Source: Chloroflexota bacterium (lineage in GTDB: Bacteria > Chloroflexota > Anaerolineae > CG2-30-64-16). Taken from it: a DNA stretch of 64,000 bases. This document shows, one piece after another, positions 2,858-64,000 of this stretch. The first letter of the stretch is position 1. Each line of letters begins with the position of its first letter. The notes beneath the pieces are model-generated. The model was not told the origin of the DNA, ran no database searches, and worked only from the letters and a program-made list of their open reading frames with translations. Both the position numbers and the translations under genes were made by a program. Where the stretch lies: contig JAPLHB010000190.1 of NCBI GenBank assembly GCA_026389845.1, positions 9,845-73,844 on the forward strand. Direction: 5' to 3'.

Positions 2858-2932
2858 ACTTCCCTCTTGTAGGGGCGATCCCTTGCGGTCGCCCCCCTGG
2901 GCAGGCGCAGGGCCATGCCCCTACGGTTGATG

Positions 2933-8091: not shown

Positions 8092-8517
8092 ATGCAACCC
8101 ACGCAGCACTACCCTGAACCGACCGTCGGCGCACTGATCTTCGACCCGGCGAGCCGCCTGTTGCTGATGCGGTCGCACAAGTGGGCCGGCAAGTACGTCG
8201 TGCCCGGCGGCCACGTGGAGCTCGGCGAGACGCTGGCGGCCGCGCTGCGCCGCGAGGTGGCGGAAGAGACGGGCTTGACGATCTACGGCATCACGTTCGT
8301 GGGCATGCAGGAGTTCATCTACGATCCGGCGTTCTGGCAGCCCCGGCACTTTATCTTCTTCGACTACGCCTGCCGCACCAATGCGACAGAAGTCCACCTG
8401 AATGACGAGGCGCAGGAGTACGTCTGGGCTACCGTTGACGAGGCGCTGCGCCTGCCCATCGAGCCGTATACGGAGGTAGCGATCCGGACTTACCTGGCGC
8501 GGCAAGCCGGCCGGTAA
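8092..8517 (+). CDS. NUDIX hydrolase
   Basis: Nudix box GGHVELGETLAAALRREVAEETGL (Gx5Ex7REUxEExGU). Confidence 0.75.
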   Translation: MQPTQHYPEPTVGALIFDPASRLLLMRSHKWAGKYVVPGGHVELGETLAAALRREVAEETGLTIYGITFVGMQEFIYDPAFWQPRHFIFFDYACRTNATEVHLNDEAQEYVWATVDEALRLPIEPYTEVAIRTYLARQAGR

Positions 8518-8520
8518 CCC

Positions 8521-9237: not shown

Positions 9238-9278
9238 ATCCAGCCACTTCGATTCCGCCCGGCCCGCGTCCGGCTAGC

Positions 9279-31096: not shown

Positions 31097-31568
31097 GCCA
31101 ATTGCGTTTCTCGAAGCGCTGGTTGCCGCGCTGCAACGCGCCGGCAGCTATAACAAAAACGACCAGTGCCCACCGGCGGCCATCCTCTGGCCCGATAAGG
31201 AGCGGCAGTGGGAACCTTTGTTGCCGGTGCTGCGTGAGCGGCTGCCGCTGCTGACCCTCGGCTCTTACGCACCAACTCAACGCACTGGCCCGGCCTATTG
31301 GCTGCGCTGCATGATCGCGCGAACCCTGCCCTACGACATCTACGTGCGCTGGAAGCCGCTCCAGCAGCAGCCCATCGGCTGGGCGCCGGATCTCAACGAT
31401 GGGGTGCGGCTCAATATCCGGCCGTTCGTGACCGCCGGCGTGCTGCGCAGTCGGTTCACGATCAATTGGAAGGTGGATCGGGGGACGAACCCGGATGGGA
31501 GCGCGCGGGTGAATGATCGGCACCTGACGCGCAGCGAGAAACAGGCCGTGCGCCGGTCATACCCATAG
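31089..31568 (+). pseudogene. chimeric remnant: pglZ 5' end (~80 codons) fused in frame to pglX 3' end (~78 codons)
   Basis: MSEPIAFLEALVAALQRAGSYNKNDQCPPAAILWPDKERQWEPLLP...MIARTLP is near-identical to the PglZ N-terminus (34294-). The following YDIYVRWKPLQQQPIGWAPDLNDGVRLNIRPFVTAGVLRSRFTINWKVDRGTNPDG... is near-identical to the PglX C-terminus (28850-29084). Confidence 0.65.
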
Positions 31569-31690
31569 GCATGACTTGACGGCTGGTCTGGCGTAAGTTT
31601 TGCGCAATCACAGGCTGAATCGCTTGCGGGCTGACAAAGTCAGCATTTGGTATCGCCGTCATAAGTACCTAAACTCAAGGAGGTAGGATC

Positions 31691-33718: not shown

Positions 33719-33828
33719 TGCCTATCCGAATAATAGCAGCGCGGGCTCCCATGCCCGCAACCGGCGGCGGGCGAAAGTACAGCCGATGTCTGGGAGCCGC
33801 CTCCGCTGGTTATTCGGATAGGCTGAGC

Positions 33829-34024
33829 TATACTCGGCACGGTCACAAAATGCGCTTGTAGGCGGCTGTCATTCTGAGCGGGTCTACCCCTGACTTCTCG
33901 TGACGGCGAGCATCCAGCGAAGAATCCGTCCCGCGACGAGACCCCTTCGACTGCGCTCAGGGCAGGCTCTTCGCTGGATTTTCACCGCGACGCACTTCAC
34001 GGGACCAACCCGCTCAGGGTGACA
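33829..34024. repeat. MITE-like repeat, copy A (inverted termini TGTCATTCTGAGCGGGT / ACCCGCTCAGGGTGACA)
   Basis: Shares >85% identity in blocks with copies at 34076-34241, 43091-43308, 46622-46755 and 49619-49768. Internal palindromes ATCCAGCGAAGAATC / CTTCGCTGG and CTTCGACTGCGCTCAGG. Confidence 0.6.
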
Positions 34025-34075
34025 AAGCCAAGGTTTCAGCGCCGCGAAAAACGCAGTCTATGCCCGTGTGCAGTA

Positions 34076-34241
34076 TATACTCGGCACGGTCACAAAATGC
34101 GCTTGTAGGCGGCTGTCATTCTGAGCGGGTCTACCCCGTGTCGTGCGTGGCGGCGAGTCTCTAGCGAAGGGTCTTGTTGCAGTATGGAACGGATTCTTCG
34201 CTGGTTTCACGCCGCAACGAGGAGTCTGGGGCTAACCCGCT
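34076..34241. repeat. MITE-like repeat, copy B (short variant)
   Basis: Same 5' block ATACTCGGCACGGTCACAAAATGCGCTTGTAGGCGGC plus inverted termini TGTCATTCTGAGCGGGTCTACCCC ... GGGGCTAACCCGCTCAGAATGACA. Confidence 0.6.
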
Positions 34242-34293
34242 CAGAATGACAATTATTCACTCATGAAATAGCTGAACCGATCAGTGAGGCGCC

Positions 34294-36612: not shown

Positions 36613-36741
36613 GTGTAGGGCAATTTGCCAAATTGCCCTACAGAACCGACCGGAATAGAGCCTTCAGGCGGTCTGGCGAGCGCACGAACCGGCTGAAGCC
36701 TTGAATCCAGAGCAGCGGGGAGCGATTTTCAGGACGGTAAG

Positions 36742-38787
36742 ATGGAACTGGATAGGTTGGACCAACTCGCGGCCGAAGCATTCACGGGGTACGTCGTCCG
36801 CAAGGACCTGGCTCTGCGGTTTCGCGGCCAGTATCCCGTGCCGACCTACGTCGGCGAGTTCCTGTTGGGACGCTACTGCGCCAGCACCGACCCGGCCGAG
36901 ATCGCGGAAGGGCTGGAGATCGTCGAGCGCCAGATGCGCGAGCGCACCGTGCGGCCGGGCGAGGAAGAGTTGTTCAAGTCACGGGCGCGCGAGCGCGGCT
37001 CAGTCAAGCTGATTGATCTGATCACCGCGCGGCTGGACACCGCGACCGACTCCTACCTGGCCACGCTGCCCAGCCTGCGCTTGCGCGACGTGCGCATCGA
37101 CGCGGAGACGGTCGCGGGCAACGAGCGCATGTTGACCGGCGGCTTCTATGCCGAAATCCAGCTTGAGTACGACGCCGCGATTGCCCAGGAACGCAACGGC
37201 CGGCCCTTCGGCATCACCGCCTTGCGCCCCATCCAGCTTTCCAAGCGCGGCGTTTCGGATGACCTGGCCCGCGGCCGCGCGGCCTTCACCACCGAGGAAT
37301 GGCGGCAACTCCTGTTGCGGAGCGTCGGCTTCGAGCCGGAGCAGTTCACCCGGCGGGCACAAGACATTCTGCTCCTGCGTATGGTCCCGTTCGTCGAGCG
37401 CAACTTCAACGTGGTGGAGCTTGGTCCGCGCGGCACCGGCAAGTCACACCTCTACCAGCAAATCTCCCCCTACTCGCACCTGGTCTCCGGCGGCAAGGCC
37501 ACCGTGGCGCAGATGTTCGTCAACAACGCCACGGGCCAACGCGGCCTGGTGTGCCTCTACGACGTGGTCTGCTTCGATGAGGTCTCCGGCATCGCCTTCG
37601 ACCAGCGGGACGGCGTCAACATCATGAAGGGCTACATGGAGGCCGGGGAGTTCAGCCGGGGCCGCGAGAACATCCGCGCCAGTGGCAGCATCGTCATGGT
37701 GGGCAACTTCGAGGTGGACGTGGAGCATCAGCAGCGGATCGGCCACCTGCTGGGCCCGCTCCCGCCGGAGATGCGCAACGACACCGCCTTCATGGATCGC
37801 ATCCACGCCTACCTGCCCGGCTGGGACGTGCCCAAGCTCGACCGCGCCCTGTTCACCGAGCACTTCGGACTGGTGAGTGACTTCCTGTCAGAGGGTTGGT
37901 CACAACTGCGTGCCGAGAACCGGCTGCCGGTCGTCGCGAGCCGCATCCGCTACGGCAGCGCGATCAGCGGCCGCGATGCCAACGCCATCAACCACACCGT
38001 CAATGGCCTGCTCAAGCTGCTCTATCCCGACCGCGAGATGGCGATCAGCGATGAAGACCTGGCATGGGCCGTGGAACTGGCGCTGGAGTGTCGCCGCAGG
38101 GTGAAGGAGCAGCAGAAGCGCATCGGCAGCGCAGAGTTCCGCAACACCCACTTCAGCTATCAACTCGGCGTCGAAGGGGTCGAGAAGTTCGTCGTGACAC
38201 CGGAGCTACAAAGCACCCAGGCCATCGGCAGCGATCCGCTGCCGCCGGGCCAGGTGTGGGGCATCAGCCCCGGCGGTCCGGACGAAGGCGCCGGCCTCTA
38301 CCGGATTGACGTCAACGTGGGGCCGGGCGCCGGCGTGCGCATCGTCAACTTCCCCGCGCCGGGGCCGTTCCGCGAGAGCATCAAGTACGGCGAGCAGAAC
38401 CTGATCATGCGTGCCCGCGAGCTCGTCGGCGACCGCGACCCGCGCCAGCACGAGTTCACCGTGCAACTGCGCGCCTTCGACGCGGCCAAGACCGGAGCGT
38501 TCCTGGGCCTGCCCGCGCTGCTGGCATTCTGCAGCGCGCTGCTGGGCAAGAGCCTGAAGGGTGGCCTGATCGCCGTCGGCGCGCTCAACCTGGGCGGCGG
38601 CCTCGACCCGGTCTACAACGCCGTCAACGTTGCCGAGTTGGCGATCGAGAAGGGCGCGTCCATGCTGCTCATCCCCATCTCCGCCCGCCGGCAGTTGAAC
38701 GAGCTGTCGGACGAGATGGCGATGAAGCTGACGATCCTGTTCTATGCGGACGCGCGCGAGGCGCTGTTGAAGGCGCTGGGGGATTAG
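36742..38787 (+). CDS. brxL: BREX system Lon protease-like protein BrxL
   Basis: 681 aa; AAA+-like P-loop GPRGTGKSH plus C-terminal Lon protease-like domain; terminal gene of the BREX-1 operon. Confidence 0.85.
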   Translation: MELDRLDQLAAEAFTGYVVRKDLALRFRGQYPVPTYVGEFLLGRYCASTDPAEIAEGLEIVERQMRERTVRPGEEELFKSRARERGSVKLIDLITARLDTATDSYLATLPSLRLRDVRIDAETVAGNERMLTGGFYAEIQLEYDAAIAQERNGRPFGITALRPIQLSKRGVSDDLARGRAAFTTEEWRQLLLRSVGFEPEQFTRRAQDILLLRMVPFVERNFNVVELGPRGTGKSHLYQQISPYSHLVSGGKATVAQMFVNNATGQRGLVCLYDVVCFDEVSGIAFDQRDGVNIMKGYMEAGEFSRGRENIRASGSIVMVGNFEVDVEHQQRIGHLLGPLPPEMRNDTAFMDRIHAYLPGWDVPKLDRALFTEHFGLVSDFLSEGWSQLRAENRLPVVASRIRYGSAISGRDANAINHTVNGLLKLLYPDREMAISDEDLAWAVELALECRRRVKEQQKRIGSAEFRNTHFSYQLGVEGVEKFVVTPELQSTQAIGSDPLPPGQVWGISPGGPDEGAGLYRIDVNVGPGAGVRIVNFPAPGPFRESIKYGEQNLIMRARELVGDRDPRQHEFTVQLRAFDAAKTGAFLGLPALLAFCSALLGKSLKGGLIAVGALNLGGGLDPVYNAVNVAELAIEKGASMLLIPISARRQLNELSDEMAMKLTILFYADAREALLKALGD

Positions 38788-38877
38788 CCGGGACGATAAC
38801 ACAGACTTATCGTACGACCGACTTCCTCCGTGCGGATGATTGTGCCAAGAGAGCCATATTCTTGGTTGTCACCCCAA

Positions 38878-38912
38878 GATTGACACCGCCCCGACCCTGA
38901 TGTAGAGTCATC
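38878..38912 (+). promoter_or_regulatory. sigma-70-like promoter candidate TTGACA-N17-TAGAGT
   Basis: TTGACACCGCCCCGACCCTGATGTAGAGT in the 360-bp brxL-VOC intergenic region. Confidence 0.3.
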
Positions 38913-39154
38913 CCAGGGTCGCCTTTCAGTAACTGGTCGCACCAGGCAACGGCTATCTTGCTCCCCAAGGTGCTTGAGGCCCGACAGCAGGCCATCTCCT
39001 CGAGGTGATCTGCTCTCGGGTCGGTGTCATCTCATCAGGAGCAAGAACCATGTTGCAGAGTATGTCTGGCCGCAACTGACCCCAACAAAAAAGGCCCAGC
39101 CGGCGCAGAGCCGGTCGGGCCAATGCAGCGCTTTGCATCCAGAGGTTGAATCCT

Positions 39155-39631
39155 ATGTCCCAGCCGCCCAACACTGCGATTCCCGCCCGCTACGTCCACA
39201 CCAACTTGATCGCCCGCGATTGGCAGGCGCTCGCTCGTTTCTACGAGACGATCTTCGGTTGCGTGCGCGTGCCGCCGGAGCGCGATCTGGCTGGCCCCGA
39301 CATGGAGGCCGGCACGGGCCTCCCCGCGGCGCACCTGCGCGGGGTCCACCTGCGCCTGCCGGGCTACGGCGACGCCGGCCCGACGCTGGAGATCTTCACC
39401 TACGATCGCCTCGAAGAACGGCCAGCCACGGCGGTCAACCGGCCCGGCTTCGGTCACCTTGCCTTCAGCGTGGCCGATGTCGCGGCCGGCCGGGCCGCGG
39501 TCCTGGCGGGGGGCGGACGGCCTGTGGGGCAGGTCGTCACAGTCACGGTGGCGGGCGGCGGTCGCGTCACCTGGTGCTACGTCACCGACCCGGAAGGCAA
39601 CGTGATCGAGCTGCAGGCCTGGACGGGGTAA
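39155..39631 (+). CDS. VOC family protein (glyoxalase/bleomycin-resistance fold)
   Basis: Two-module VOC pattern (HTNLIARDW...FY ; GFGHLAFSV...DPEGNVIEL). The track ORF starts at TTG 39146; ATG 39155 preferred. Confidence 0.55.
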   Translation: MSQPPNTAIPARYVHTNLIARDWQALARFYETIFGCVRVPPERDLAGPDMEAGTGLPAAHLRGVHLRLPGYGDAGPTLEIFTYDRLEERPATAVNRPGFGHLAFSVADVAAGRAAVLAGGGRPVGQVVTVTVAGGGRVTWCYVTDPEGNVIELQAWTG

Positions 39632-49499: not shown

Positions 49500-49618
49500 G
49501 TCTTGACTGACGTTGGCTTGACAAGATACCGTTCGCTTTCCTCTCTGGCCTCGCCCCATCGCACCGCTCTGGAGTTGAGATCCTCCCGCAGGTTCCAGGA
49601 TCGGGCGAAAACGTCACG

Positions 49619-49768
49619 CTGAGCGTGAGCGGGTTGGCCGCCAAACTCTCGCAACGGCGAGAATCCAGCGAAGAATCCCTTCGTTGCACTCAGGGCAGGC
49701 TCTTCACTGCGTTCAGGACAAGTTCTCCTTGCCGCGACGAGACTCCTTCGACTGCGCTCAGCAGCTAT
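49619..49768. repeat. MITE-like repeat, copy E (3'-truncated)
   Basis: GTCACGCTGAGCGTGAGCGGGTTGGCC ... CTTCGACTGCGCTCAG; lacks the right terminus. Confidence 0.5.
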
Positions 49769-49774
49769 CGGCAG

Positions 49775-50000
49775 GCGCGCTGGCCTGCGGTAATCCTCTA
49801 CGGCCTGGCCGGCAGCGGCATAACCGCGCTCGCCTGGGCGCTGGCGGACGATGAGCGCGTGGGGCGCGCGTTTCGCGACGGCATCCTGTGGGCCGATAGC
49901 AGCCGGAATCCCAAGAAAGAAACCCGCCGCCTGTGCGGGGCGTTGGGGCTGGGGCGCGCGCCGGGCGAACGCTGGGGCGAAGGCTGGCGGCGAACCCGGC
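49775..50000 (+). pseudogene. remnant of a STAND (NB-ARC/NACHT-like) NTPase with a degenerate Walker A
   Basis: AVILYGLAGSGITALAWALADDERVGRAFRDGILWADSS resembles the NB-ARC P-loop start but has GSGIT (Lys to Ile). The frame collapses on both sides; it abuts repeat copy E. Confidence 0.3.
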
Positions 50001-50288
50001 CACCCCAAGCTGGCGGATGTCGCCAGTCGCGCATCTGATACTGAGAGAGAACGTGCAGTAGTGTGAATCCAGAGGAAGCGAGCGGCAACATCAGTTGTGT
50101 TTTCTGACCGCTTGTGCTAAACTGCTCCCAGTCACGACCCCTCGGCTGATACCGATTATGGGGAGACCTGCGTGGCGGCCGCGCACCGTCGTTTGTGACA
50201 TTCTTATGGTGGTCGGAGAGGCTTTCTCGACGATCCGCGCGACCTCAGCAGGCCCGGGTCTCCTTCAACGCACGGGTGACCTATTCCC

Positions 50289-53204
50289 ATGACCACTCCC
50301 TACCACGCCAAGTACTTCGCCTACGAGCTCACCCGCCAGGGTGGCGCGGGGGTCGAGCGGTTGTCGCGCTCGCTGTTCGATGCGTCGGTGGACCTGAATC
50401 CTCACCAGGTGGAGGCCGCGCTGTTCGCCATGCGGTCGCCATTGTCCAGCGGCGCACTGCTGGCCGATGAGGTCGGCCTGGGCAAGACGATCGAAGCGGG
50501 CATCGTGCTGTGCGAGTGCTGGGCCGAGCGCCGCCGCCGGCTGCTGGTGATCTGCCCGGCGGCAATCCGAAAACAGTGGGCGCTGGAGTTGACCGAGAAG
50601 TTCCACCTGCCCTGCCTGGTCATTGACGAGAAGTCATATCGGGAGCGCCGGGACGCCGGCGTTGCGCAGTCGTTCGAGGCGCCGGCCGTGGTGATCACCT
50701 CGATCAACTTTGCCAGCCGCTATGCTGAGGAACTGCACGCCATCCCCTGGGATCTGGTTGTGGTGGATGAAGCGCACAAGTTGCGCAATGCCTACCGCCA
50801 GAGTAACGTGATGGGCCAGCGCATCCGTTGGGCCATTGGCGACCGGCGCAAGCTGCTGCTGACCGCGACCCCGCTGCAAAACTCGCTCACCGAGCTATAC
50901 GGCCTCTCGACCCTGATAGACGAGCGGCTGTTCGGCGACCTCCCGTCGTTCCGTACTCAGTACATGAACGCGGGCGCGGACCTGGCCGAACTGCGGGAGC
51001 GTCTGCGCACCTTCTCCACGCGCACGCTGCGCCGCCAGGTGGTGGAGTATGTCCGCTTCACCGAGCGCCGGTTGATCACCCGCCCGTTCCAACCGACGGA
51101 GAACGAGCAGAAGCTGTACGAGGCGATCTCCGGCTTCTTGCAGCGAGACAACACCTATGCGTTGCCACAGCAGCAGCGCCATCTGATGACGCTGATCGTG
51201 CGCAAGCTGCTGGCATCGTCTTCGCAAGCCGTGGCCGGAACGCTGGAAGCGATGCGTGACCGCCTGGTTGCCATGTTGGATGCGAAGGGAAAACCGGGGC
51301 AATTGCCGTTGGCTGAGGCGCTGGTCTCCGAGGAGGAGATGGCTGACGAGCTGCTGGACGAGATCTTGGGGGAGGCTGTCGTAGACTCTCAAGGTCTCGG
51401 AGACCTTGAGAGTCTCGTGCCAAGTCTTGCGCCGCCGCTGGACCGGAGCAAGCTGGAAGCCGAGATCCGGGAGCTGAACGACTACATCCGCTGGGCGCGC
51501 AGCATCGGGGTGGATACCAAGGCGCGCGCGCTGCTGGCTGCGCTGCAGATCGGCTTCGGCAGGATGGCGGAGATGGGCGCCGCGCCCAGGGCGGTGATCT
51601 TCACCGAATCACGGCGGACGCAGACCTATCTCAAGGACTTCCTCGACGCCAACGGCTACGCCGGCAAGACGGTCCTTTTCAACGGGACCAACAGCGACCC
51701 CGAAACCACACGCATCTATGAGCGCTGGGTGGAGGCCAACCGTGACCTGGGCCGGACGGCCGGTTCCCGGCAAGTCAACGTGCGGACCGCCATCATCGAG
51801 CACTTCCGCGACCAGGCGAACATCATGATCGCCACCGAGGCCGCGGCCGAGGGCATCAACCTCCAGTTTTGCTCGTTGGTGATCAATTTCGACCTGCCGT
51901 GGAACCCGCAACGCATCGAGCAGCGTATCGGCCGGTGTCATCGCTACGGCCAGGAGCACGACGTCGTCGTCATCAACTTCTTGAACGAGCGCAATGCCGC
52001 GGACCAACGGGTATACGAGTTGCTCAACGAGAAGTTCCGGCTGTTTGACGGCGTCTTCGGCGCATCCGATGAGGTGCTGGGCAGCATCGAGTCGGGCGTG
52101 GATTTCGAGCGCCGCGTCCTGGACATCTACCAGCAGTGCCGTTCAACCGAGGAGATCGAGGCCGCGTTCGTGGCGCTGCGCGCGGAACTGGACGCGGCCA
52201 TCCAGACGCGCATCCGGGACACGCGGCGCATCCTGCTGGAGAACTTCGACGAGGACGTGCATGAACGGCTGCGCGCCAACCTGACCGGCACGCGCGAACA
52301 GCTCGACCGGACGGGGCGAATGTTCTGGACGACGACCCGCTTCGTACTGGATGGCCGCGCCGCCTTCGACGACGCGGGGTTGACCTTCGATCTCCTGCCG
52401 CCGGGCGTATCCGGGTGCCGGCACGGCCGCTACCACTTGATCACCAAGAACGGCGCTACTGCGTCCGAAGGACGATTTCCCGCCGATAGCGAGTTCCTCT
52501 ACCGGCTGTCCCACCCGTTGGGCGAGCACGTGTTGGAGACGGCCAAGGCGCTGCCGACGCCCGCGGCAAGCGTGACCTTCGATATCACAGGCCATCCGGC
52601 GCGCATTGCTGTGGTGGAGGCGCTGCGCTCACGCGCCGGCTGGCTGCGCTTACAGCGGCTCACGGTGGATTCCTTCGAGCGTGAGGAGTACCTGCTCTTC
52701 TCCGGCCTGGACGACGCGGGCAACTCACTGGATCCCGAGACGTGTGAGAAGCTGTTCAATTGCGCGGGCCGAACCGATGGGTTGGTCCCGTTCCCTGATA
52801 CCCCTGCGGCGCGGCTGGACGCCGAGGCTGAGCAGCATGTCAAGGCGACGATCAGCAGGTCGCTGGAGCAGAACAACCGCTACTTCCAGGAGGCCCGCGA
52901 GCAGTTGGAGAAGTGGGCGGATGACATGGTGCTGGCTGCGGAGCGTGAACTGAAGGAGACCAAGCAGCAGATCAGCGCGCTGAACCGCCAGTCCCGCCAG
53001 GCGCCCACCCTGGAGGAGCAGCACGCCATCCAGGAGAAGATCGCCGGGCTGGAACGGACCAAGCGCCGTCAGCGTTTGCGCATCTTCGAAGTCGAAGACG
53101 AGGTGATGGCCAAGCGGGATGGTTTGATCTCGGCGCTGGAGCGGCGGATGGCACAGAAGACGGCGGTCGAGGCGTTGTTCACCATCCGATGGACGGTCGT
53201 TTGA
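50289..53204 (+). CDS. SNF2-family helicase with ~400-aa C-terminal coiled-coil extension
   Basis: SNF2 motifs DEVGLGKTIEAG (I), VVVDEAHKLRN (II), INFDLPWNPQRIEQRIGRCHRYGQ (VI); 971 aa. Confidence 0.8.
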   Translation: MTTPYHAKYFAYELTRQGGAGVERLSRSLFDASVDLNPHQVEAALFAMRSPLSSGALLADEVGLGKTIEAGIVLCECWAERRRRLLVICPAAIRKQWALELTEKFHLPCLVIDEKSYRERRDAGVAQSFEAPAVVITSINFASRYAEELHAIPWDLVVVDEAHKLRNAYRQSNVMGQRIRWAIGDRRKLLLTATPLQNSLTELYGLSTLIDERLFGDLPSFRTQYMNAGADLAELRERLRTFSTRTLRRQVVEYVRFTERRLITRPFQPTENEQKLYEAISGFLQRDNTYALPQQQRHLMTLIVRKLLASSSQAVAGTLEAMRDRLVAMLDAKGKPGQLPLAEALVSEEEMADELLDEILGEAVVDSQGLGDLESLVPSLAPPLDRSKLEAEIRELNDYIRWARSIGVDTKARALLAALQIGFGRMAEMGAAPRAVIFTESRRTQTYLKDFLDANGYAGKTVLFNGTNSDPETTRIYERWVEANRDLGRTAGSRQVNVRTAIIEHFRDQANIMIATEAAAEGINLQFCSLVINFDLPWNPQRIEQRIGRCHRYGQEHDVVVINFLNERNAADQRVYELLNEKFRLFDGVFGASDEVLGSIESGVDFERRVLDIYQQCRSTEEIEAAFVALRAELDAAIQTRIRDTRRILLENFDEDVHERLRANLTGTREQLDRTGRMFWTTTRFVLDGRAAFDDAGLTFDLLPPGVSGCRHGRYHLITKNGATASEGRFPADSEFLYRLSHPLGEHVLETAKALPTPAASVTFDITGHPARIAVVEALRSRAGWLRLQRLTVDSFEREEYLLFSGLDDAGNSLDPETCEKLFNCAGRTDGLVPFPDTPAARLDAEAEQHVKATISRSLEQNNRYFQEAREQLEKWADDMVLAAERELKETKQQISALNRQSRQAPTLEEQHAIQEKIAGLERTKRRQRLRIFEVEDEVMAKRDGLISALERRMAQKTAVEALFTIRWTVV

Positions 53205-53224
53205 GCATCATGGGGAGAGCTACC

Positions 53225-53434
53225 ATGCAGAAGTGGGAGTACTTTCGAATCTGGGCATATTTTCAGGGAAACATTCAGCCGAAGTGGTACTTTGACTACA
53301 ACGGTAAGAGGCTTGAGGCAAAGGATTGGATGCCGGTCATGAATGAACTGGGCAACGAAGGATGGGAGCTTGTGTGTTCACTCCCGGTCAATCCTGCGCA
53401 GGTCGAGCTTTATTTCCAGCGCCCGAAACCGTAA
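53225..53434 (+). CDS. DUF4177 domain-containing small protein (~69 aa)
   Basis: MQKWEYFRIW...LNELGNEGWELVCSL...ELYFQRP pattern. Start refined to ATG 53225. GC about 49% versus about 65% in neighbours. Confidence 0.45.
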   Translation: MQKWEYFRIWAYFQGNIQPKWYFDYNGKRLEAKDWMPVMNELGNEGWELVCSLPVNPAQVELYFQRPKP

Positions 53435-53460
53435 TCCGACTTCTGAATGCCGAGGTATTC

Positions 53461-56535
<3,075 letters not shown>

Positions 56536-56592
56536 GAAATCCGAAACGCGGATCCGGCGAAGGAAGCATCTGACACGTAGCCCGGGGGTGAC

Positions 56593-57636
56593 ATGATGAA
56601 ATCCAGGTACGCAGCGTGGCTGCCGGTCTTAGCTTTGACCTTTGAGGCGGCGCTGTTGCTCACCAGAATTGATCGCCTGCGCGACATTTCCCCTGAAACT
56701 GCCATGGTGCTGTGTTCAGGCGCGGCACTGTTTTTGGCTGTTGCCATTCCGGTTTTCGTGCTGTTGGGTAGGGGTGGGATCCTATCGGGCATCTTGGCCG
56801 TTGTAGCGGGCCTGATGCTGCTTCTCGTCCCCCTCAACTTCATATTCGATGGGCTTCCCGATTGGCTCAGTTTCAAGCTTGTTTATGGTTCCATCCACCT
56901 GTTCCCATGTTATGTGGCCCGGCCTGCCGTAGGATGGTCCATGCTGCCCTTCGCCTTGGCACTGGCAGCATGGCGCGGGATTCGCCTCGGCCCGCGTCTG
57001 CTCTTTGTGTTGGCGGCCGTCATCTTCGTAGTCATCCACGGGCTACCGGGTCCCTCGACTCTGTTGTCTGGGTCTGCATCCCTGTGGCCCGGGTTCTCTA
57101 TGTTTACCCGCTTTCGGGAGCCTGATGGCTTCTTACAGATCCCAACATTCGGGCCTACACTCGGCATTGTCTTTGCTATCATCCTGGTCGCCATGGGGCT
57201 GGCAATCACAGCGGACGATGGGGAGAAAACACGCGTCCTCATCGCCCTGTGTTGCCTGGCGCTTGGGGAGATGGTGCTCATGGGGCAGATCGTTCCCTGG
57301 GTCATCAGGCACCCTGTCGAGTGGAAATGGGTATTTATCGCCAAGGGCGTGTGGATCAGTCTGGTGGGTATAGTCGGGCTGGCGATGCCGATCGAGTCTG
57401 ATCGGCTGAAATGGGCCGTTGGATTCGCTATCGCCGGATTGGCCGCGTTCAGTGCATTTGGCACGGAAGGCCTAGCGCTCGTTATTGTCGTCCCCCTGCT
57501 TCTGGCCGCCTTAGGTGCCGCGGGGGTCGTTGTTGGTGTCATTCTTCAGGGAGCAGCCCGCGCTGGGATCGAAGATGCTGAGCGCATCCGGCAGGGCAAG
57601 CCGCCCAAGTACCTTCCGCCACCGCCCTGGTTCTGA
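56593..57636 (+). CDS. polytopic membrane protein of unknown function (~9-10 TM)
   Basis: 347 aa, hydrophobic throughout with a Pro-rich C-terminal tail. GC about 57%, lower than the flanking genes. Intercalated between the MTase and nuclease-helicase genes. Confidence 0.45.
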   Translation: MMKSRYAAWLPVLALTFEAALLLTRIDRLRDISPETAMVLCSGAALFLAVAIPVFVLLGRGGILSGILAVVAGLMLLLVPLNFIFDGLPDWLSFKLVYGSIHLFPCYVARPAVGWSMLPFALALAAWRGIRLGPRLLFVLAAVIFVVIHGLPGPSTLLSGSASLWPGFSMFTRFREPDGFLQIPTFGPTLGIVFAIILVAMGLAITADDGEKTRVLIALCCLALGEMVLMGQIVPWVIRHPVEWKWVFIAKGVWISLVGIVGLAMPIESDRLKWAVGFAIAGLAAFSAFGTEGLALVIVVPLLLAALGAAGVVVGVILQGAARAGIEDAERIRQGKPPKYLPPPPWF

Positions 57637-57697
57637 TAAGGAGAACGGGCCTAGGCGGGCTTTGCTTCCGCCCAGGCGCTCTCCTCGGGAGACATGA

Positions 57698-60600
57698 ATG
57701 CCAAAGCGATCCCGTGCCGGCAGCCCTCAGCTCTTTGAAGCGAGACCCCTCCGTTTCGACCAGAAGTTGGTCCTGAACCGTTGGCTCATCAGCCTGTTCG
57801 AGATGCCCAGCCTCGAACAGTTGGCCAAGGAGCTAACTAACCCCGATCTGGAAGGCTTCGACGCCGACAACGTCAGCCACTTCTGCACCGCCTTGCGCAA
57901 CCGCACCGTCGACCGCGCGGCGCTGTCCGGCGACCTGCTGCTCGCCTACGATCGTAACATCGTCCGCCACTGGCGGCAGATCACCGAGCGGCGCAACCGG
58001 GTCGAGCGCCGCCTGCTCTATCCCAAGCCCTTTCAGTACCTGGCACTGCTCTTCACCGAGATCTACCTGGATCGCTACTTCCGCGACCGCGACCGGCTGC
58101 TGGCCGACCTCAACGCGCACGTGGCTGCGTTCAACGCCGAAGCGGCGCCGGATGACAGGCTCAGCCCCTACCAACCCGAAGATCTCAACAAGATCGCCTT
58201 CTGGATGGCCACCGGCAGCGGCAAGACGCTGCTGATGCACATCAACATCCTGCAATACCAGCACTACCTCGCGCTGCACGATGCCGGCGAATCGATCAAC
58301 CGGGTGATCCTGCTCACCCCCAACGAAGGGCTTTCCCGCCAGCACCTGGCCGAGTTTGCGTTATCGGGAATCGAGGCCGACATCTTCAGCAAGGACGGTC
58401 GCTCCCTCTTCGCGGGCCGGGCGGTGGAGATCATTGACATCCACAAGCTGGCCGACCGCAGCGGCGAGAAGACCATCGCGGTGGAGGCGTTCGAGCGCAA
58501 CAACCTGGTGCTGGTGGACGAGGGGCATCGCGGGGCCAGCGCCAGCGAGGAAGGGGAGTGGATGCGCCGCCGCGCGGAGCTATGCGCCGACGGCTTCTCT
58601 TTCGAGTATTCCGCCACTTTCGGTCAGGCGGTCAAGGCCAGCGGCGCCCGCAACCTGGCCGGTATCTATGCCCGCTGCATCCTGTTCGACTACTCCTACA
58701 AGTACTTCTACAACGACGGCTACGGCAAGGAATACCGCATCCTCAACTTCGAGAACGACACGAACGAAGCCCAGCGCCAGCGCTACCTCGCCGCCTGCCT
58801 GCTGGCCTACTATCAGCAACAAAAACTCTACGCCGATCGCAGCGCTGAATTCCGCCCCTTCCTGCTCGAACGGCCGCTCTGGATCTTCGTCGGCGGCAGC
58901 GTCAACGCGGTACGGTTGCAGGGCGGCCGGATGGTCTCCGACGTGACCGACATCCTGCTCTTCCTGGCCAGTTTTGCCAGCCCTGACCACAAACGAGACA
59001 TGATCACCTTGATCGAGCAGTTCCTGCACGGTCGGGCGGGCCTGCTGGACGTCAAGGGCAACGACCTCTTCGCTGGGGCCTACACCTACCTGGTTAGGCT
59101 CGGCCTCACCGCCGAGCAGGTCTACGCCGATATCCTGCGTGTGATCTACAACGCGCCGGCCGGCGGCAGCCTGCACGTCGTCAACTTGAAGGGCACGGAC
59201 GGCGAGATCGCCTTGCACCTGGGCGATCACGACCCCTTCGGCGTCATCAACGTCGGCGACGCGCCCCGACTGTGCAAGCTGTGCGAGGACTATCGAACGC
59301 TAGTCGTTGAGGAGCGCGAGTTCACCGGCTCGCTCTTCCACGCCATCAACGGCAGCGACTCCACGATCAACGTCCTGATCGGCTCCAAGAAGTTCACCGA
59401 GGGCTGGAGTAGTTGGCGGGTCAGCACGATGGGCCTGATGAACATCGGCCGCACCGAAGGCTCCGAGATCATCCAACTGTTCGGCCGCGGCGTGCGGCTC
59501 AAGGGCCGTGACTTCTGCCTCAAGCGCAGCCGGTGCATCGTTGGCATCCACGCCCCCGCCGAGATGGAGCGGCTGGAAACCCTCAACGTCTTCGGCATCC
59601 GCGCCGACTACATGCGCCAGTTCCGCGAATACCTGGCCGACGAGGGCCTCCAAAACGGCGAGCCGCCCATCGAGTTCGTGCTGCCAGTGCTCAAGAACCT
59701 GGGCGAGGTGCGGCTCAAGACGCTGCGGGTCAAGACGGGCTATGATTTCAAGCGCCAGGGTCCACGGCCGGCCGTCGGTCCCGTGTCCGATAGTCTCCGC
59801 AAGTACCCCGTGGAGGTCAACTGGTATCCCAAGCTGCAGGCGCTCGCGAGTCAACACGGCCAGCCCCGGTCACAGCCAGCCGAGCTGCACGAGGCCCGCT
59901 TCACCGATGCGCACCTGGAATTCCTGGACTTCGACGCCATCTACTTCGAGCTCCAGCGCTTCAAGAACGAGCGTACCTGGTACAACCTGGCGATCCCGCC
60001 GGAAGGCTTGCGCGCTCTGTTGCGGGACGGCGACTGGTACCGCCTGCTGATCCCGGCCGACGAGATGCAGTTCCGCTCCTTCGAGCAGGTGCGCGGCTGG
60101 CAGGAGATTGCCGTCGCGCTGCTGACCAAGTACTGCGATCGCTACTATAAGAACTGCAAGGCCGCGTTCGAGCAGGATCACCTGGAATACGCCGACCTGG
60201 CCCCCGACGACGGCAACTTTGTGTCCGAATACCGCATCCTGGTCGAGCGGTCCCAAGATGACATCATCGCCAAGCTGGAAGAAATCAGGCGCCTGATCGC
60301 CCGGCGGGTGCTGCGTGATGTAGAGTACGGCCGGCTGCACGCCATCATGTTCGGCCAGCACCTCTACCAGCCGTTGCTCTACGTCAACAGCGAACTGATC
60401 GAAGTGCGTCCGGTGCATCTCAACGAGGGGGAGCGCGACTTTGTGCTCGACCTGCGGGAGTACTACGAGCATCACCGGTCGTTCTTTGCGGGCCGCGAGC
60501 TTTACCTGCTGCGCAACATGAGCCGCGGCCGCGGCATCGGCTTCTTCGAGGCCGGCAACTTCTACCCCGACTTCATCCTCTGGCTGGTGACGGGCGACGG

Positions 60601-60880
60601 TCAGCGCATCGCGTTCGTGGATCCGAAGGGCATCCGCAACCTGGAAGGAATGAACGACCCCAAGATCCGCTTCCACCAAACGATCAAAGAGTTGGAAGCG
60701 AAGCTCGGCGACCCGACCGTCAAGCTCAGTTCCTTCATCATCTCCAACACGCCGCACCAGCAGGTCGCCTGGTGGGGGCCGGGACTCAGCAAGGATGAGT
60801 TTGAGGCGCGCAATGTGCTGTTTCAGGTGGAGGATCGGGCGACGTATATCAGCAGGATGCTGGAGCAGACGCTGGCCTGA
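57698..60880 (+). CDS. Type III restriction Res-like SF2 helicase with C-terminal PD-(D/E)xK nuclease domain
   Basis: Motif I MATGSGKTLLM, II LVLVDEGHRG (DEGH), III EYSATFG, VI QLFGRGVRLKGR. C-terminal GDG...AFVDPKG endonuclease motif about 85 residues from the end. 1060 aa. Confidence 0.7.
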   Translation: MPKRSRAGSPQLFEARPLRFDQKLVLNRWLISLFEMPSLEQLAKELTNPDLEGFDADNVSHFCTALRNRTVDRAALSGDLLLAYDRNIVRHWRQITERRNRVERRLLYPKPFQYLALLFTEIYLDRYFRDRDRLLADLNAHVAAFNAEAAPDDRLSPYQPEDLNKIAFWMATGSGKTLLMHINILQYQHYLALHDAGESINRVILLTPNEGLSRQHLAEFALSGIEADIFSKDGRSLFAGRAVEIIDIHKLADRSGEKTIAVEAFERNNLVLVDEGHRGASASEEGEWMRRRAELCADGFSFEYSATFGQAVKASGARNLAGIYARCILFDYSYKYFYNDGYGKEYRILNFENDTNEAQRQRYLAACLLAYYQQQKLYADRSAEFRPFLLERPLWIFVGGSVNAVRLQGGRMVSDVTDILLFLASFASPDHKRDMITLIEQFLHGRAGLLDVKGNDLFAGAYTYLVRLGLTAEQVYADILRVIYNAPAGGSLHVVNLKGTDGEIALHLGDHDPFGVINVGDAPRLCKLCEDYRTLVVEEREFTGSLFHAINGSDSTINVLIGSKKFTEGWSSWRVSTMGLMNIGRTEGSEIIQLFGRGVRLKGRDFCLKRSRCIVGIHAPAEMERLETLNVFGIRADYMRQFREYLADEGLQNGEPPIEFVLPVLKNLGEVRLKTLRVKTGYDFKRQGPRPAVGPVSDSLRKYPVEVNWYPKLQALASQHGQPRSQPAELHEARFTDAHLEFLDFDAIYFELQRFKNERTWYNLAIPPEGLRALLRDGDWYRLLIPADEMQFRSFEQVRGWQEIAVALLTKYCDRYYKNCKAAFEQDHLEYADLAPDDGNFVSEYRILVERSQDDIIAKLEEIRRLIARRVLRDVEYGRLHAIMFGQHLYQPLLYVNSELIEVRPVHLNEGERDFVLDLREYYEHHRSFFAGRELYLLRNMSRGRGIGFFEAGNFYPDFILWLVTGDGQRIAFVDPKGIRNLEGMNDPKIRFHQTIKELEAKLGDPTVKLSSFIISNTPHQQVAWWGPGLSKDEFEARNVLFQVEDRATYISRMLEQTLA

Positions 60881-60908
60881 GAGACAGATCAGGCCTGGGA
60901 GATAGCGC

Positions 60909-61937
60909 ATGAAAACGGAATTGATGACGCTGATGTCGCTGATCGTATCTATCCTGGGGCTGATAGTCACAGTGCTGAGTCTCCTTCGAGACTTCTTCAA
61001 TTGGGGGCCGCAGTCCTGGAAGAAGGAGTACTCTCAGTGGATCAGACGCGTCGCCTTCGCTTTTTTGGGTGTCGGGGTTGTTGCCTACGCCATCCTACAG
61101 CACGTCCAGTCCACACAAGGCGCACACGCTGCTGCACAAGCGCAGGCACAGCAGACTGCTCAGGTCGCAACCATCGCGGTGCTTGAGGAATCAAGCCGCT
61201 CTCAAGGAACCGCCCTGGCTGAAGCTCGCGCAACTCAGACACGCCAAGTAGCAACTGCGACCGCGTTAGAGGAAACCTATCTCCGGCGATCCACTGAACT
61301 TGCGCAGGCTCGAGCGACATTGACCGCGCCGAGGACTGCGCCGGTGGCGTTGGCAGCAGATCAACTCGTCGCGCCCGAATCTTTCGATGCCGGATCGCCA
61401 AAATGGAAACTTGACATAGGATGGCGTGCAGAAAACGAAAACGAAAACGGATACCTGTGTGCCAAGAGCGCTGAAGGCCAATCTACCTATGCGACACCAG
61501 AAGAGTCACCTGACGTAGTCAGGTGGTCGGTCACAAGCGACTATGTTTTCGAAGTCGATGTCAAGCCCATCAGTTTCAGCACCAAGGGCATATGCGGAAT
61601 CCTGCTGCGCAAGAGCGATCCAAAGTCGGTCTTTTACGCTCTACACCTCAAACCCACCGGAGTGGCCATTTACGAATGCGCCGGTGATTCCTGCAATAAC
61701 CAACTATGGGAAGCTAAGTCGTCCATCGCATCGGGCGCGTGGCATACCATCTTCGTGCAGGCAGAAGGCGCCGAGATTCTAGTATTATTGGACGGCCGTC
61801 AAGCCCTTCGAGAACGGACAGAGAACAAGAACCCGTACAGCGGTATGCCTCAGCCTCGGGGGATAGCTTGGCTCGACGTCGGATTCGGAGCAGAGTGCTG
61901 TTTCGATAACATTCGGGTCTTGAAGGTACAACGGTAA
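60909..61937 (+). CDS. membrane-anchored DUF1080 (3-keto-disaccharide hydrolase / LamG-like) domain protein
   Basis: Two N-terminal TM helices, Ala/Gln/Thr repeat linker (TAQVATIAVLEE / TRQVATATALEE), C-terminal ...LWEAKSSIASGAWHTIFVQAEG...CFDNIRVLKV typical of DUF1080. GC about 55%. Confidence 0.45.
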   Translation: MKTELMTLMSLIVSILGLIVTVLSLLRDFFNWGPQSWKKEYSQWIRRVAFAFLGVGVVAYAILQHVQSTQGAHAAAQAQAQQTAQVATIAVLEESSRSQGTALAEARATQTRQVATATALEETYLRRSTELAQARATLTAPRTAPVALAADQLVAPESFDAGSPKWKLDIGWRAENENENGYLCAKSAEGQSTYATPEESPDVVRWSVTSDYVFEVDVKPISFSTKGICGILLRKSDPKSVFYALHLKPTGVAIYECAGDSCNNQLWEAKSSIASGAWHTIFVQAEGAEILVLLDGRQALRERTENKNPYSGMPQPRGIAWLDVGFGAECCFDNIRVLKVQR

Positions 61938-62354
61938 GTAGAACCGAAAGGCGCAACTTGACGCCATCCTGGCGCTCTTCGATCAGGCCCGCGCTACCGG
62001 CACTAACTCACCGATGATACTGACTGTCCCCGATGCCGTGGGTGATCAGTAGCCGTTGCGAAGCGGTGTCCAACGTGACGAGGCGCGGCGCTCTCGCAGA
62101 CCAGCTGACGATTCGCCGCACCTTCACTTGAGACAGACATGCCTACCCACCTCTGCATCGCCCCCGCCGCATCCGGCAAGACGGCCTACGTCTTGACCCT
62201 GGCCCGGTGCGCACAGACGTTGGCTTGACACCGTACTGTTAGCTCTCCCCGCTTGCCTCGCCCCCAGACGATTTGACACCCCGGCCGGTCGTGCTATAAT
62301 ACCTAAGAAACTTATGTGATAATCTGACTGGTTCTTCCCCTTTCGAGAGGCCCG

Positions 62355-62474
62355 ATGCAACAAGTAGACCAAATGCGCAAAGGCACCACCACGCGGGCGA
62401 TCCCGAAGCTGCTGGCCGATGCCGATCAGACCATGCACGGCTATCAGATCATCCAGGCGCTGGAAAGGAGACCA
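62355..62474 (+). pseudogene. truncated PadR-family regulator N-terminus (about 40 codons)
   Basis: MRKGTTTRAIPKLLADADQTMHGYQIIQALE resembles the PadR winged-helix start; the reading frame then degenerates and overlaps the next gene. Confidence 0.25.
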
Positions 62475-62478
62475 AACT

Positions 62479-64000
62479 GTGTCCTATCTTCCAACCATCC
62501 AACGACTTGCCGAGAACCCCGAAGAGTTGGAGCTGGCCTACCAGCAGGCCGTCAAGGCCGGCGACCAGGCGGCCTTCGCGGAGGCGGTCGAGGCCAGTTA
62601 TGCCGAGTCGAGCGCGAACCTGCTGCTGGCGGCCTGGCACTATCGCCTGGCCCACGCCGCGGCCGCGGTCAAAAAGCGGGCCGTCGCCTGGGGCTGGGCG
62701 CTGCCGCTGGGCGTGTTCAACGGGCTGCTGCTGTGGCTGCTGTCCGACTTTCAGCGGTTCAAGATCCAGGTGACGAACCCGCTGTACGGCACGGTCCACG
62801 ACGTGATGCCGGCCGTGGTGTTGCTGGCTGCGCCCATCAGCGCGGCGCTGATCGCGCTCTTTCTGACGCTGGCCGGCAAACAGCGTGTGGCCCGCGGCCT
62901 GGCCGTCGGGTTGGGTCTGGCCGCGGGCACGGCCTACGTGCTGCTGCTCGCCCCCCACATCTGGCCGCGGGTGTTCCAGGAGCAGTACCTCGGCCTGATG
63001 GCGCTGCACCTGGGTCTGCTGGCCTGGGCCGCGGTCGGCCTGGTGGCGCTGGCTCGGCGCGGCGATCAGGCGAACCGCTTCGCCTTCCTGGTCAAATCGC
63101 TGGAAGCCGCCGTGGTGGCCGGGCTGCTGGCGATCGCCGGCGGGATCTTCACCGGCATCACTTTCGGCTTGTTCAACGCGTTGGGCATCCAGCCGCCTGA
63201 CGTGGTGATGCGGCTCTTCGGAGCCGGCGGTGGCGGGCTGATCGCGCTCATCGCGGTGGCGCTGGTCTATGATCCGACCGCGACGCCTCAGCAGCAGTCC
63301 TTCGATGAGGGGTTGAGCAAGCTGGTGGCGCTGCTGATGCGCCTGCTGCTGCCGCTGGCGGTGGCGGTGCTGCTGGTCTACCTGGCCTTCATCCCCTTCA
63401 ACTGGCGCCAGCCGTTCGAGAACCGCGATGTGCTGGTGGTCTTCAACGCGCTGCTCTTTGCAGTAGCCGCCCTGCTGATAGGCGCGACGCCGGCGCAGGG
63501 GGCTGAGCTCGGCGAGAAAGCGCAAACCTGGCTGCGCCGTGGGGTGATCGCCCTGGCCGGCCTGACGCTGCTGGTCGGCCTCTACGCGCTGGCCGCGCTC
63601 CTCTATCGCACCGCCAACGACCGCCTGACCCCCAACCGCCTGCTGTTCATCGGCTGGAGCCTGGTCAACATCGCCATCCTGGCCACCCTGTTGATCCAGC
63701 AGGCGCGGGCGGGACGGTCGCGCTGGCTGCCGGCCCTGCACCGCGCCTTCGCCATCGGCATCGTGCTCTATCTGATCTGGTCGTTGGCCGGTCTGCTGGC
63801 TGTGCCCTGGCTGTTCCGAGGCTCTCTCGCGGAGGTGGCCGGCCTGCCGCCGAGCGTCCAACAGCTCGTCTACGAGCGCGCGGACCCCATCCTGCTCAAA
63901 TGCCCCAGCAGCGCGCACATCTACCTGCTGCAAAAGGGCCAAAAGCGCTGGATCCAGGACATCCCCGTCTTCGAGGCCGAGGGCTATCGTTGGGGCGACG
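62479..64000 (+). CDS. polytopic membrane protein (3' partial, runs off window end); absent from the ORF track
   Basis: GTG 62479 preceded by AAAGGAG; frame open to nt 64000 (>500 codons). Translation VSYLPTIQRLAENPEELELAYQQAV... then 10+ TM helices. The antisense 497-aa track ORF is its shadow. Confidence 0.45.
   Translation, partial: MSYLPTIQRLAENPEELELAYQQAVKAGDQAAFAEAVEASYAESSANLLLAAWHYRLAHAAAAVKKRAVAWGWALPLGVFNGLLLWLLSDFQRFKIQVTNPLYGTVHDVMPAVVLLAAPISAALIALFLTLAGKQRVARGLAVGLGLAAGTAYVLLLAPHIWPRVFQEQYLGLMALHLGLLAWAAVGLVALARRGDQANRFAFLVKSLEAAVVAGLLAIAGGIFTGITFGLFNALGIQPPDVVMRLFGAGGGGLIALIAVALVYDPTATPQQQSFDEGLSKLVALLMRLLLPLAVAVLLVYLAFIPFNWRQPFENRDVLVVFNALLFAVAALLIGATPAQGAELGEKAQTWLRRGVIALAGLTLLVGLYALAALLYRTANDRLTPNRLLFIGWSLVNIAILATLLIQQARAGRSRWLPALHRAFAIGIVLYLIWSLAGLLAVPWLFRGSLAEVAGLPPSVQQLVYERADPILLKCPSSAHIYLLQKGQKRWIQDIPVFEAEGYRWGD

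Follow-up and report, generated by a model that had tools for sequence, protein, structure and literature searches.

The DNA considered here is a 64-kb stretch from a Chloroflexota bacterium (contig JAPLHB010000190.1, positions 9,845 to 73,844), which is termed the window and provides all coordinates given below unless another sequence is named. Its forward strand carries a block of six genes at positions 50289-61937 that an earlier note, made from the letters of the sequence, had put forward as a candidate composite defence system. An inspection of the open reading frames (ORFs) of the window located six ORFs on one strand where the note had placed them, so that its description of six co-directional, tightly spaced genes was borne out, with the starts of two genes corrected. 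The block comprises three core genes and three additional genes, all on the plus strand. The first core gene (50289-53204, 971 aa) encodes an SNF2-family helicase resembling RapA and DrmD, the second (53461-56535, 1024 aa) a beta-class N6-adenine DNA methyltransferase (MTase) that resembles Type III Mod and the third (57698-60880, 1060 aa) a Res-like helicase of superfamily 2 (SF2) with a DEGH motif and a C-terminal PD-(D/E)xK nuclease domain. The junction between the first two core genes is occupied by a gene for a small protein with weak likeness to DUF4177 and Sp36 (53225-53434, 69 aa) and that between the second and the third by an orphan ORF for a polytopic membrane protein (56593-57636, 347 aa), whereas a gene for a DUF1080/LamG-like protein (60909-61937, 342 aa) represents a sub-lineage-specific downstream neighbour.

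An independent Logan contig (L001) assembled from the same organism contained an identical sequence in which all six ORFs were called as genes. The MTase gene most likely starts with the ATG at position 53461, yielding a protein of 1024 aa that begins with MPTKFERL, rather than at position 53362 with 1057 aa, since a gene beginning at the upstream position would run into the small gene, and that called on L001 likewise specifies 1024 aa. The start of the small gene is position 53225, preceded by the Shine-Dalgarno motif GGGGAGAG, and GGGAGA-like Shine-Dalgarno motifs are present 5-7 nt upstream of all six genes, with no internal terminators in the block that exceed chance. The G+C content at third codon positions (GC3) of the core trio (0.79-0.87) agrees with that of host housekeeping genes (0.82-0.91), whereas the three additional genes are atypical in comparison with both (0.64 for the small gene, 0.68 for the membrane ORF and 0.59 for the DUF1080-like gene). 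A check of the deduced proteins against the hidden Markov models of PADLOC separated the same two groups, with near-full-length models recovered for the SNF2, MTase and Res proteins and none for the other three.

The identification of the first gene product as an SNF2 helicase was confirmed by the Pfam domains PF00176 (SNF2-rel_dom, 4e-34) and Helicase_C (9e-20), and its DEAH box was invariant in 52 orthologues. The closest solved structure in a sequence search of the Protein Data Bank (PDB) was RapA (1.5e-33). The best PADLOC match was the DrmD model PDLC02619, which was covered nearly over its full length with 654 bits, and the nearest NCBIfam model was DISARM_DrmD_b (NF038318), aligned over profile positions 22-650 of 868 with 661 bits against a cut-off of 950; the scores were 265 bits for NF038317, against a cut-off of 610, and 227 bits for the PADLOC model BrxHI|BrxHII. 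As judged from these profiles, the SNF2 protein is a predicted relative of DrmD that remains below the equivalog thresholds, and its nearest kin appear to be RapA among solved structures and DrmD and BrxHII among defence proteins. The last ~310 aa, which terminate in a coiled coil, matched no PADLOC model, and no Pfam domain was detected in the C-terminal 334 aa. A nuclease domain was found by neither Pfam nor PADLOC anywhere in the protein.

The MTase encoded by the second core gene belongs to the Pfam family PF01555 (N6_N4_Mtase, 3e-22) and displays the motif order of the beta class, with DPPY at residues 478-481 preceding FxGxG at residues 773-777; the residues D478, P479, P480, F773 and G775 were invariant among its homologues. 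It matched the PADLOC model MTase_III PDLC03646 with 795 bits over the full length of the 1057-position profile, and all PADLOC families among the best 25 of its 29 matches were MTase_III or MTase_II models. A phmmer search of the PDB retrieved Mbo45V (3.5e-34) and the Mod subunit of EcoP15I (4.6e-19), and a Foldseek search with the predicted model (predicted local distance difference test, pLDDT, 76) returned 4zcf_A with an E-value of 2.4e-21. Accordingly, the catalytic and target-recognition regions resemble Type III Mod proteins of solved structure in both sequence and fold, namely EcoP15I, Mbo45V and one more, and the earlier assignment as a Mod-like enzyme with DPPY before FxGxG was retained, whereas the length of 1057 aa assumed with it had to be shortened to 1024 aa. 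The protein consists of a conserved N-terminal domain (residues ~1-470), the DPPY motif, a variable target-recognition domain (TRD, residues ~500-760), the FxGxG motif and a conserved C-terminal domain. The least conserved segment, residues 560-720 with conservation values of 0.46-0.53, lies within the TRD, which is what a diversification of target recognition would predict. Two blocks of the N-terminal domain, residues 121-160 and 281-400, are strongly conserved, and within PADLOC the extensions of about 470 aa at the N-terminus and about 190 aa at the C-terminus are shared by Type III MTase families alone, two of which include the N-terminal domain. The N-terminal domain, described before as one that could not be placed, is conserved within a Type III MTase family that PADLOC already includes and is not a peculiarity of this locus, although no fold was assigned to residues 1-470 by a whole-model fold search, the matches of which were dominated by the catalytic domain.

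In the protein specified by the third core gene, the Pfam search matched the N-lobe alone of the helicase (ResIII, 9e-10), and the motifs ATGSGKT, DEGH, SAT and QxxGRGxR were recognised. The C-terminal PD...DxK signature includes D958, D975 and K977, which were invariant across 60 homologues, and the PADLOC model REase_III PDLC03654 was matched over nearly its full length with 789 bits. The earlier description as a Res-like DEGH helicase with a C-terminal PD-(D/E)xK motif was thus confirmed. Searches of the PDB, both by phmmer with the single sequence and by hmmsearch with a family profile built from 16 sequences, yielded nothing at E <= 1. In an hhalign comparison of the Res family profile with the Res protein of P1, 42 columns around motif I/Ia alone were aligned, with a probability of 8.8%. 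With catalytic motifs that are invariant in Mod, Res and SNF2, all three enzymes look active.

The distribution of the six genes was analyzed by tblastn searches with all six proteins in 80 genomic loci from more than 12 phyla, selected via the family alignment, and in five close relatives. Homologues of Res number at least 7,795 and are typically 60-68% identical across phyla. Among the 80 loci, the gene order SNF2-MTase-Res is kept in Chloroflexota, Planctomycetota, Acidobacteriota, Pseudomonadota, Verrucomicrobiota, Nitrospirota, Cyanobacteria, Bacillota and others, and SNF2 is located upstream of Mod-Res in 53 of the 60 loci that contain enough upstream DNA to judge (88%). The gaps are tight, with medians of 30 nt between SNF2 and Mod and 49 nt between Mod and Res, such that the core genes directly abut in most loci, and a fourth conserved gene was detected in the 80 loci neither upstream of SNF2 nor downstream of Res. 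A Mantel comparison of pairwise distances in 46 clean trios resulted in correlations of r = 0.90 for SNF2-Res, 0.79 for MTase-Res and 0.71 for SNF2-MTase, and none of 999 permutations gave values as high. The strong correlation of the distance matrices indicates that the three genes travel as one unit. Several of the seven loci devoid of SNF2 retain a 3' scar of the gene (L005 and L016) or carry a CRISPR-like array in its place, and these scars point to secondary loss. The synteny expected for all six genes was therefore recovered for SNF2-Mod-Res only; homologues of the DUF4177-like, membrane and DUF1080-like genes were present in 0, 0 and 1 of 84 other loci, respectively.

The trio is also found on mobile DNA. 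An IncF conjugative plasmid of Escherichia coli bears the three genes with a small helix-turn-helix (HTH) gene in front of them, and an intact trio was present in 2 of 5,426 complete E. coli genomes. On the E. coli plasmid pEC316_2 it spans positions 29496-39248 of NZ_CP018955.1 (locus L083). A 298-bp piece of the 3' end of the trio MTase gene is conserved to 99.7% on plasmids of about 155 E. coli genomes, for instance at positions 104173-104470 of NZ_AP023198.1 (positions 8324-8621 of the L083 query), under the annotation 'DUF1158 domain-containing protein'. On plasmid pHsw1 of Hymenobacter swuensis (locus L082, 211-17467) a Mod-Res pair with 48% identity occurs without SNF2; it is preceded by genes for a 1210-aa RecD/UvrD-like superfamily 1 (SF1) helicase and a 433-aa protein and followed by one for a 1673-aa SF1 helicase with a Sacsin domain, and these helicases may be an alternative motor partner or merely plasmid genes. 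In the Pyrinomonadaceae loci L013, L015 and L016, periodic repeats with the recurring translations LNAFRHHWNFH and CSTPFGIIGIFT occupy, approximately 2-6 kb upstream of the MTase gene, the place expected for SNF2 and adjoin Cas2-like and Cas4/Cas1-like ORFs, an arrangement that, on the ORF translations alone, resembles a CRISPR array abutting Mod-Res.

The three additional genes present a different picture. The small protein scored 18.9 bits with the DUF4177 model (cut-off 25) and 26 bits with Sp36_fam (cut-off 50) and had no match in a phage collection; the 69-aa gene of the earlier note is real, whereas its DUF4177 label stays under the family threshold. Neither the small gene nor the membrane gene had a counterpart in any of the 84 other loci. 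The membrane ORF matched no Pfam, PADLOC or NCBIfam model, found itself alone among 5.8 billion protein clusters and gained a single weak match (E 6e-5) when 1.84 billion representatives were scanned exhaustively with HMMER. Nevertheless, several features suggest a genuine gene: among the six frames the annotated one scored best, a Shine-Dalgarno-like motif GGGGGTG precedes the ORF, and the deduced protein has 6-8 hydrophobic segments, in line with the 347-aa polytopic membrane protein that the earlier note had placed between mod and res. The 342-aa protein downstream of Res combines an N-terminal hydrophobic hairpin with a Q/A-rich linker and a DUF1080/LamG-like beta-sandwich, a layout that agrees with the membrane-anchored protein proposed before, while its score with DUF1080/3keto-disac_hyd (PF06439) amounted to 23.2 bits and thus fell short of the curated cut-off of 26.8. 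Its only counterpart is encoded in locus L164 (11973-13001), the nearest of the five close relatives; the two proteins share 54-58% amino acid identity and the same succession of transmembrane hairpin, Q/A-linker and beta-sandwich, the adjoining Res proteins are 89% identical, and the gene is absent from the 83 other loci. The divergence between both copies is concentrated in the Q/A-rich linker and in parts of the beta-sandwich, which suggests relaxed or diversifying selection on a putatively membrane-anchored, outward-facing protein.

The positions held by the small gene and the membrane ORF are recurrently filled with other genes in related loci. When an insert was defined as more than 400 nt between neighbouring core genes, inserts were counted at the SNF2|Mod junction in 18 of 54 loci and at the Mod|Res junction in 27 of 73, with both junctions occupied in 10 loci. 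The inserted genes are mostly co-directional with the operon and belong to many unrelated families, including an AAA_21 ATPase with DUF4276 (8 loci), Fic (6), GmrSD_N (4), 23S_rRNA_IVP (3) and RhuM (3) as well as HTH-Peptidase_M78, AIPR, OLD-TOPRIM and AbiE. Even the five closest relatives, the Res proteins of which are 80-89% identical to that of the window, each contain different genes at the junctions. In L164 a 670-aa Tricorn/PD40-like gene is inserted between Mod and Res, the small gene is missing, and SNF2 is replaced, save for a scar, by a gene for a STAND NTPase. The region 153-3526 of this locus comprises the first 42 codons of SNF2 (93% identical), a 39-nt piece of its 3' region and, in place of the remainder, an intact gene for a 1040-aa STAND NTPase with AlbA_2, NB-ARC and TPR domains; the end of the locus bears a PhdYeFM/PIN toxin-antitoxin pair, a nucleotidyltransferase gene, a DUF433 gene and a phage-type integrase gene. 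Locus L165 contains a PDDEXK_3 gene as junction content, and L167, which lacks SNF2, harbours a complete AbiEi/AbiEii pair between Mod and Res at positions 8441-9975 (PADLOC 3e-79 and 1e-105). The simplest reading of these data is that the extra genes are passengers at recurrent insertion points, and the 69-aa and membrane genes of the window are probably co-transcribed with the operon.

The block is thus best regarded, with good though not full confidence, as a three-gene restriction-modification (R-M) unit consisting of SNF2, a Type III-like Mod and a Res-like protein, with two lineage-specific genes at its junctions and a sub-lineage-specific DUF1080-like gene behind it. The trio itself is a widespread, database-recognised but unnamed three-gene variant of Type III R-M, of which the present locus is one more member. 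In such a unit, Mod, the TRD of which varies between loci, would methylate adenine at the N6 position within a short asymmetric site of the host DNA and would carry Res to unmethylated sites on incoming DNA. The DEGH motor of Res would then spend ATP on long-range communication along the DNA, and the C-terminal PD-(D/E)xK domain would perform the cut. SNF2 would constitute a third, usually retained subunit, for which we infer a role purely from synteny and co-evolution; our guess is a translocase on double-stranded DNA that might help Mod-Res to reach or connect sites or might clear bound proteins. The 69-aa and membrane proteins would be passengers at junctions that are filled elsewhere by AbiE, Fic, GmrSD-like, OLD-like, RhuM or AAA plus DUF4276 cassettes.

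Several observations weigh against this interpretation. Linked genes that are co-inherited would by themselves yield a high Mantel correlation, and SNF2 is absent or reduced to a scar in seven of the 60 evaluable loci and, among the five relatives nearest to the window, in two. The loss of SNF2 in some relatives means that it is not absolutely required for the persistence of Mod-Res, which may work without it. Since Res shows no detectable sequence homology to the canonical Type III Res proteins of EcoP1I and EcoP15I beyond motif I, and since its predicted model is of moderate quality (pLDDT 67), a mechanism derived from EcoP15I may not transfer to this protein. Moreover, the tight spacing of all six genes, each with a Shine-Dalgarno motif and without intervening terminators, and the retention of the DUF1080-like gene beside Res in two relatives would allow the genes to be expressed together and the cargo to be functionally coupled to some local extent.

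It is on this last arrangement that the composite system of the earlier note would have to be built, in which the six genes act together and the membrane and DUF1080-like proteins serve as sensors or effectors beside SNF2, Mod and Res. The conserved position of the DUF1080-like gene behind Res in L164 would fit such a system, but the small and membrane genes recur in none of the other loci, the latter is an orphan, L164 has the Tricorn/PD40-like gene at its Mod|Res junction and no small gene, the GC3 values of the three extra genes deviate from those of the trio, and the core genes abut directly in most loci. Homologues of three of the six genes were thus found not to recur as part of this set elsewhere, and we consider the composite extremely improbable. 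Another role for the cargo, modelled by analogy on PrrC, would be that in a guard arrangement: the membrane ORF and the 69-aa protein would be back-up effectors that are silenced by the restriction complex and freed when a phage inhibits it. The reports on PrrC (PMC2610378, PMC3874168) provide a precedent within Type I hsd loci, the genes at the junctions of relatives are often genuine defence or toxin modules (AbiEi/AbiEii, OLD-like, GmrSD-like, Fic and AAA_21 plus DUF4276), and a polytopic membrane protein could serve as an abortive-infection effector. However, neither a homologue nor a motif was found for the two junction genes of the window, and the cargo families are too diverse for one specific interaction with Mod or Res, such that hitch-hiking on operon transcription and on horizontal transfer of the unit offers the simpler explanation and a guard function appears improbable.

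Two further alternatives concern the trio itself. In the first, the genes would be neighbours by chance: a conventional Type III R-M system of Mod and Res would happen to be linked to a stand-alone SNF2 helicase with a defence or housekeeping function. Mod-Res does occur without SNF2 in the seven loci mentioned, in L164, in L167 and on the Hymenobacter plasmid, PADLOC would call Mod and Res an RM type III system by themselves, and single-gene SNF2 defence proteins such as HmaA exist (PMC11232893). This explanation is nevertheless unlikely in view of the presence of SNF2 in the large majority of evaluable loci, in fixed order and orientation and with a spacing of about 30 nt, across phyla and plasmids; in addition, the distances of SNF2 follow those of Res more closely than the distances of Mod do, the scars indicate secondary loss, and the SNF2 protein has no nuclease domain of its own. 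Still less probable, and only slightly ahead of the six-gene composite, is a variant or hybrid of DISARM class 1 in which the Res-like helicase-nuclease has replaced DrmA, DrmB and DrmC. The SNF2 protein is indeed closest to DrmD models, including DISARM_DrmD, which was aligned over nearly its full length, and its gene directly precedes an adenine MTase gene as in class 1 (bioRxiv 10.1101/2021.12.28.474362), but the score of 661 bits remains far below the cut-off of 950, the last 310 aa are covered by no PADLOC model, neither the block nor the 80 related loci contained a DrmA, DUF1998/DrmB or phospholipase D (PLD)/DrmC gene, and the MTase matches Type III rather than DrmMI models. Of the hybrid suggested before, the SNF2-assisted Type III-like part was therefore supported, with SNF2 as a conserved partner, and the DISARM-like part was not.

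A more far-reaching version of the three-gene interpretation, which we regard as possible but rather doubtful, would see in the trio a distinct, unnamed class of ATP-dependent restriction with two motors, distributed over more than a dozen phyla and enterobacterial plasmids, in which SNF2 is a working subunit and Res is unrelated in sequence to the Res protein of EcoP15I, while the junctions exchange defence cassettes and the cargo of the window is previously unseen and possibly guarded in a PrrC-like manner. Should SNF2 be a true third subunit, a very common trio would represent Type III-like restriction with an added motor of the chromatin-remodeller type and would connect Type III R-M with those defence systems that combine an SNF2 helicase and a methyltransferase, namely DISARM class 1, BREX type 3 and ARMADA. 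The trio provides a tractable model for the function of DrmD-like proteins, with an intact copy on the E. coli IncF plasmid that makes direct testing possible, and the junction hot-spots lend themselves to a search for new genes of defence or toxin function.

The flanks of the block were also inspected. Upstream of it lie genes for a PPDK-like enzyme, a two-component system, an ABC transporter and a DUF2804 protein, and because these neighbours are housekeeping-like a defence island is not evident; the context of a STAND remnant and of repeats resembling miniature inverted-repeat transposable elements (MITEs), on which the earlier suggestion of such an island had relied, proved weak. A 137-aa ORF at positions 49625-50038 (+), the STAND remnant of the earlier note, is possibly a degraded P-loop/STAND fragment: it shares 35-39% identity over 38-48 aa with the intact STAND NTPase of L164, and its family match was marginal (AAA_16, E 0.038). 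The 52 nt at positions 49626-49677, upstream of SNF2, are 83% identical in inverted orientation to positions 4217-4268 of the L164 MTase gene, which looks like a rearrangement scar. The MITE-like repeats reduced to one pair of 52-nt imperfect direct repeats at positions 49506-49557 (+) and 62213-62264 (+), which are identical at 42 of 52 positions, share the core GACGTTGGCTTGACA and are the only two copies in the window. They bracket positions 49558-62212, including the STAND-like fragment, with no integrase gene between them, and may be att-like island boundaries, the mark of an old insertion or a dispersed regulatory repeat. An empty site was sought in 80 metagenome loci that carry relatives of the DUF2804 protein (up to 76% identity), and none of them shared downstream synteny with the window. 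The upstream copy comes after a perfect hairpin past the stop codon of the DUF2804 gene, and just past the downstream copy a perfect sigma-70 consensus promoter (12/12; TTGACA, 16 nt, TATAAT, with an extended TG) is located at positions 62273-62300 (+) and points into an unannotated ORF (62355-63200) without a family match.

A comparison with known systems supported the earlier statement that the block is neither a canonical two-gene Type III system nor DISARM. Among the searchable papers, a set from which subscription-only articles are excluded, none was found that names or tests the SNF2-Mod-Res trio, and the gene combination is mentioned only in passing, on an integrative element of Cronobacter. 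The trio agrees with the Type III enzymes EcoP1I and EcoP15I in several respects: the MTase is a beta-class N6-adenine enzyme in which the variable TRD is central, the helicase is of the SF2 DExH kind and has a PD-(D/E)xK nuclease at its C-terminus, mod precedes res, and PADLOC assigns both proteins to Type III models. It differs from them by the conserved third gene SNF2, by the additional N-terminal (~470 aa) and C-terminal (~190 aa) domains of Mod and by a Res protein that resembles EcoP1I Res detectably in motif I only. Canonical Type III enzymes hemimethylate an asymmetric site, and their ATP-dependent cleavage requires two unmethylated sites in inverse orientation.

DISARM class 1 resembles the trio in that an adenine MTase gene follows immediately on a gene for a DrmD-like SNF2 protein, and the role of DrmD in DISARM is described as still undefined (bioRxiv 10.1101/2021.12.28.474362). 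In contrast to DISARM, DrmA, DrmB (DUF1998) and DrmC (PLD) are neither present in the block or its flanks nor conserved in the 80 loci, the MTase is a beta-class enzyme of PF01555 and not DrmMI (PF13659), and the SNF2 protein scores below the curated DrmD cut-off with an unmatched C-terminal region. A combination of a RapA/BrxHII-like Swi2/Snf2 protein with an N6-MTase and a separate effector likewise characterises BREX type 3 (BrxHII and PglXI), ARMADA (ArmA and ArmB) and the DUF499-centred BREX-related systems (PMC12839542, PMC12458937). The trio also pairs a RapA-like SNF2 protein with an MTase, but PglZ, BrxC/DUF499 and a YprA-like helicase are lacking in the block, the MTase is not PglX-like, and the effector would be the Res-like helicase-nuclease. 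An assignment to the BREX-related (BR) systems was rejected, as their DUF499 hallmark (PMC12839542) is absent from the block and not conserved in related loci. HmaA is a single-gene defence protein in which an SNF2 helicase is fused to a NOV_C nuclease domain (PMC11232893); this identity was likewise rejected, the HmaA model having reached 173 bits over the helicase core alone of a protein with no Pfam domain at its C-terminus. Regarding the arrangement of genes, a parallel is offered by Type I hsd loci with PrrC or RloC: the anticodon nuclease PrrC is genetically linked to a Type I R-M enzyme that keeps it silent, and an anti-restriction factor of a phage activates it (PMC2610378, PMC3874168). 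In both cases unrelated defence or toxin genes are found inside a restriction operon, here in 33-37% of the loci per junction, whereas the host operon in the present case is a Type III-like trio rather than a Type I system.

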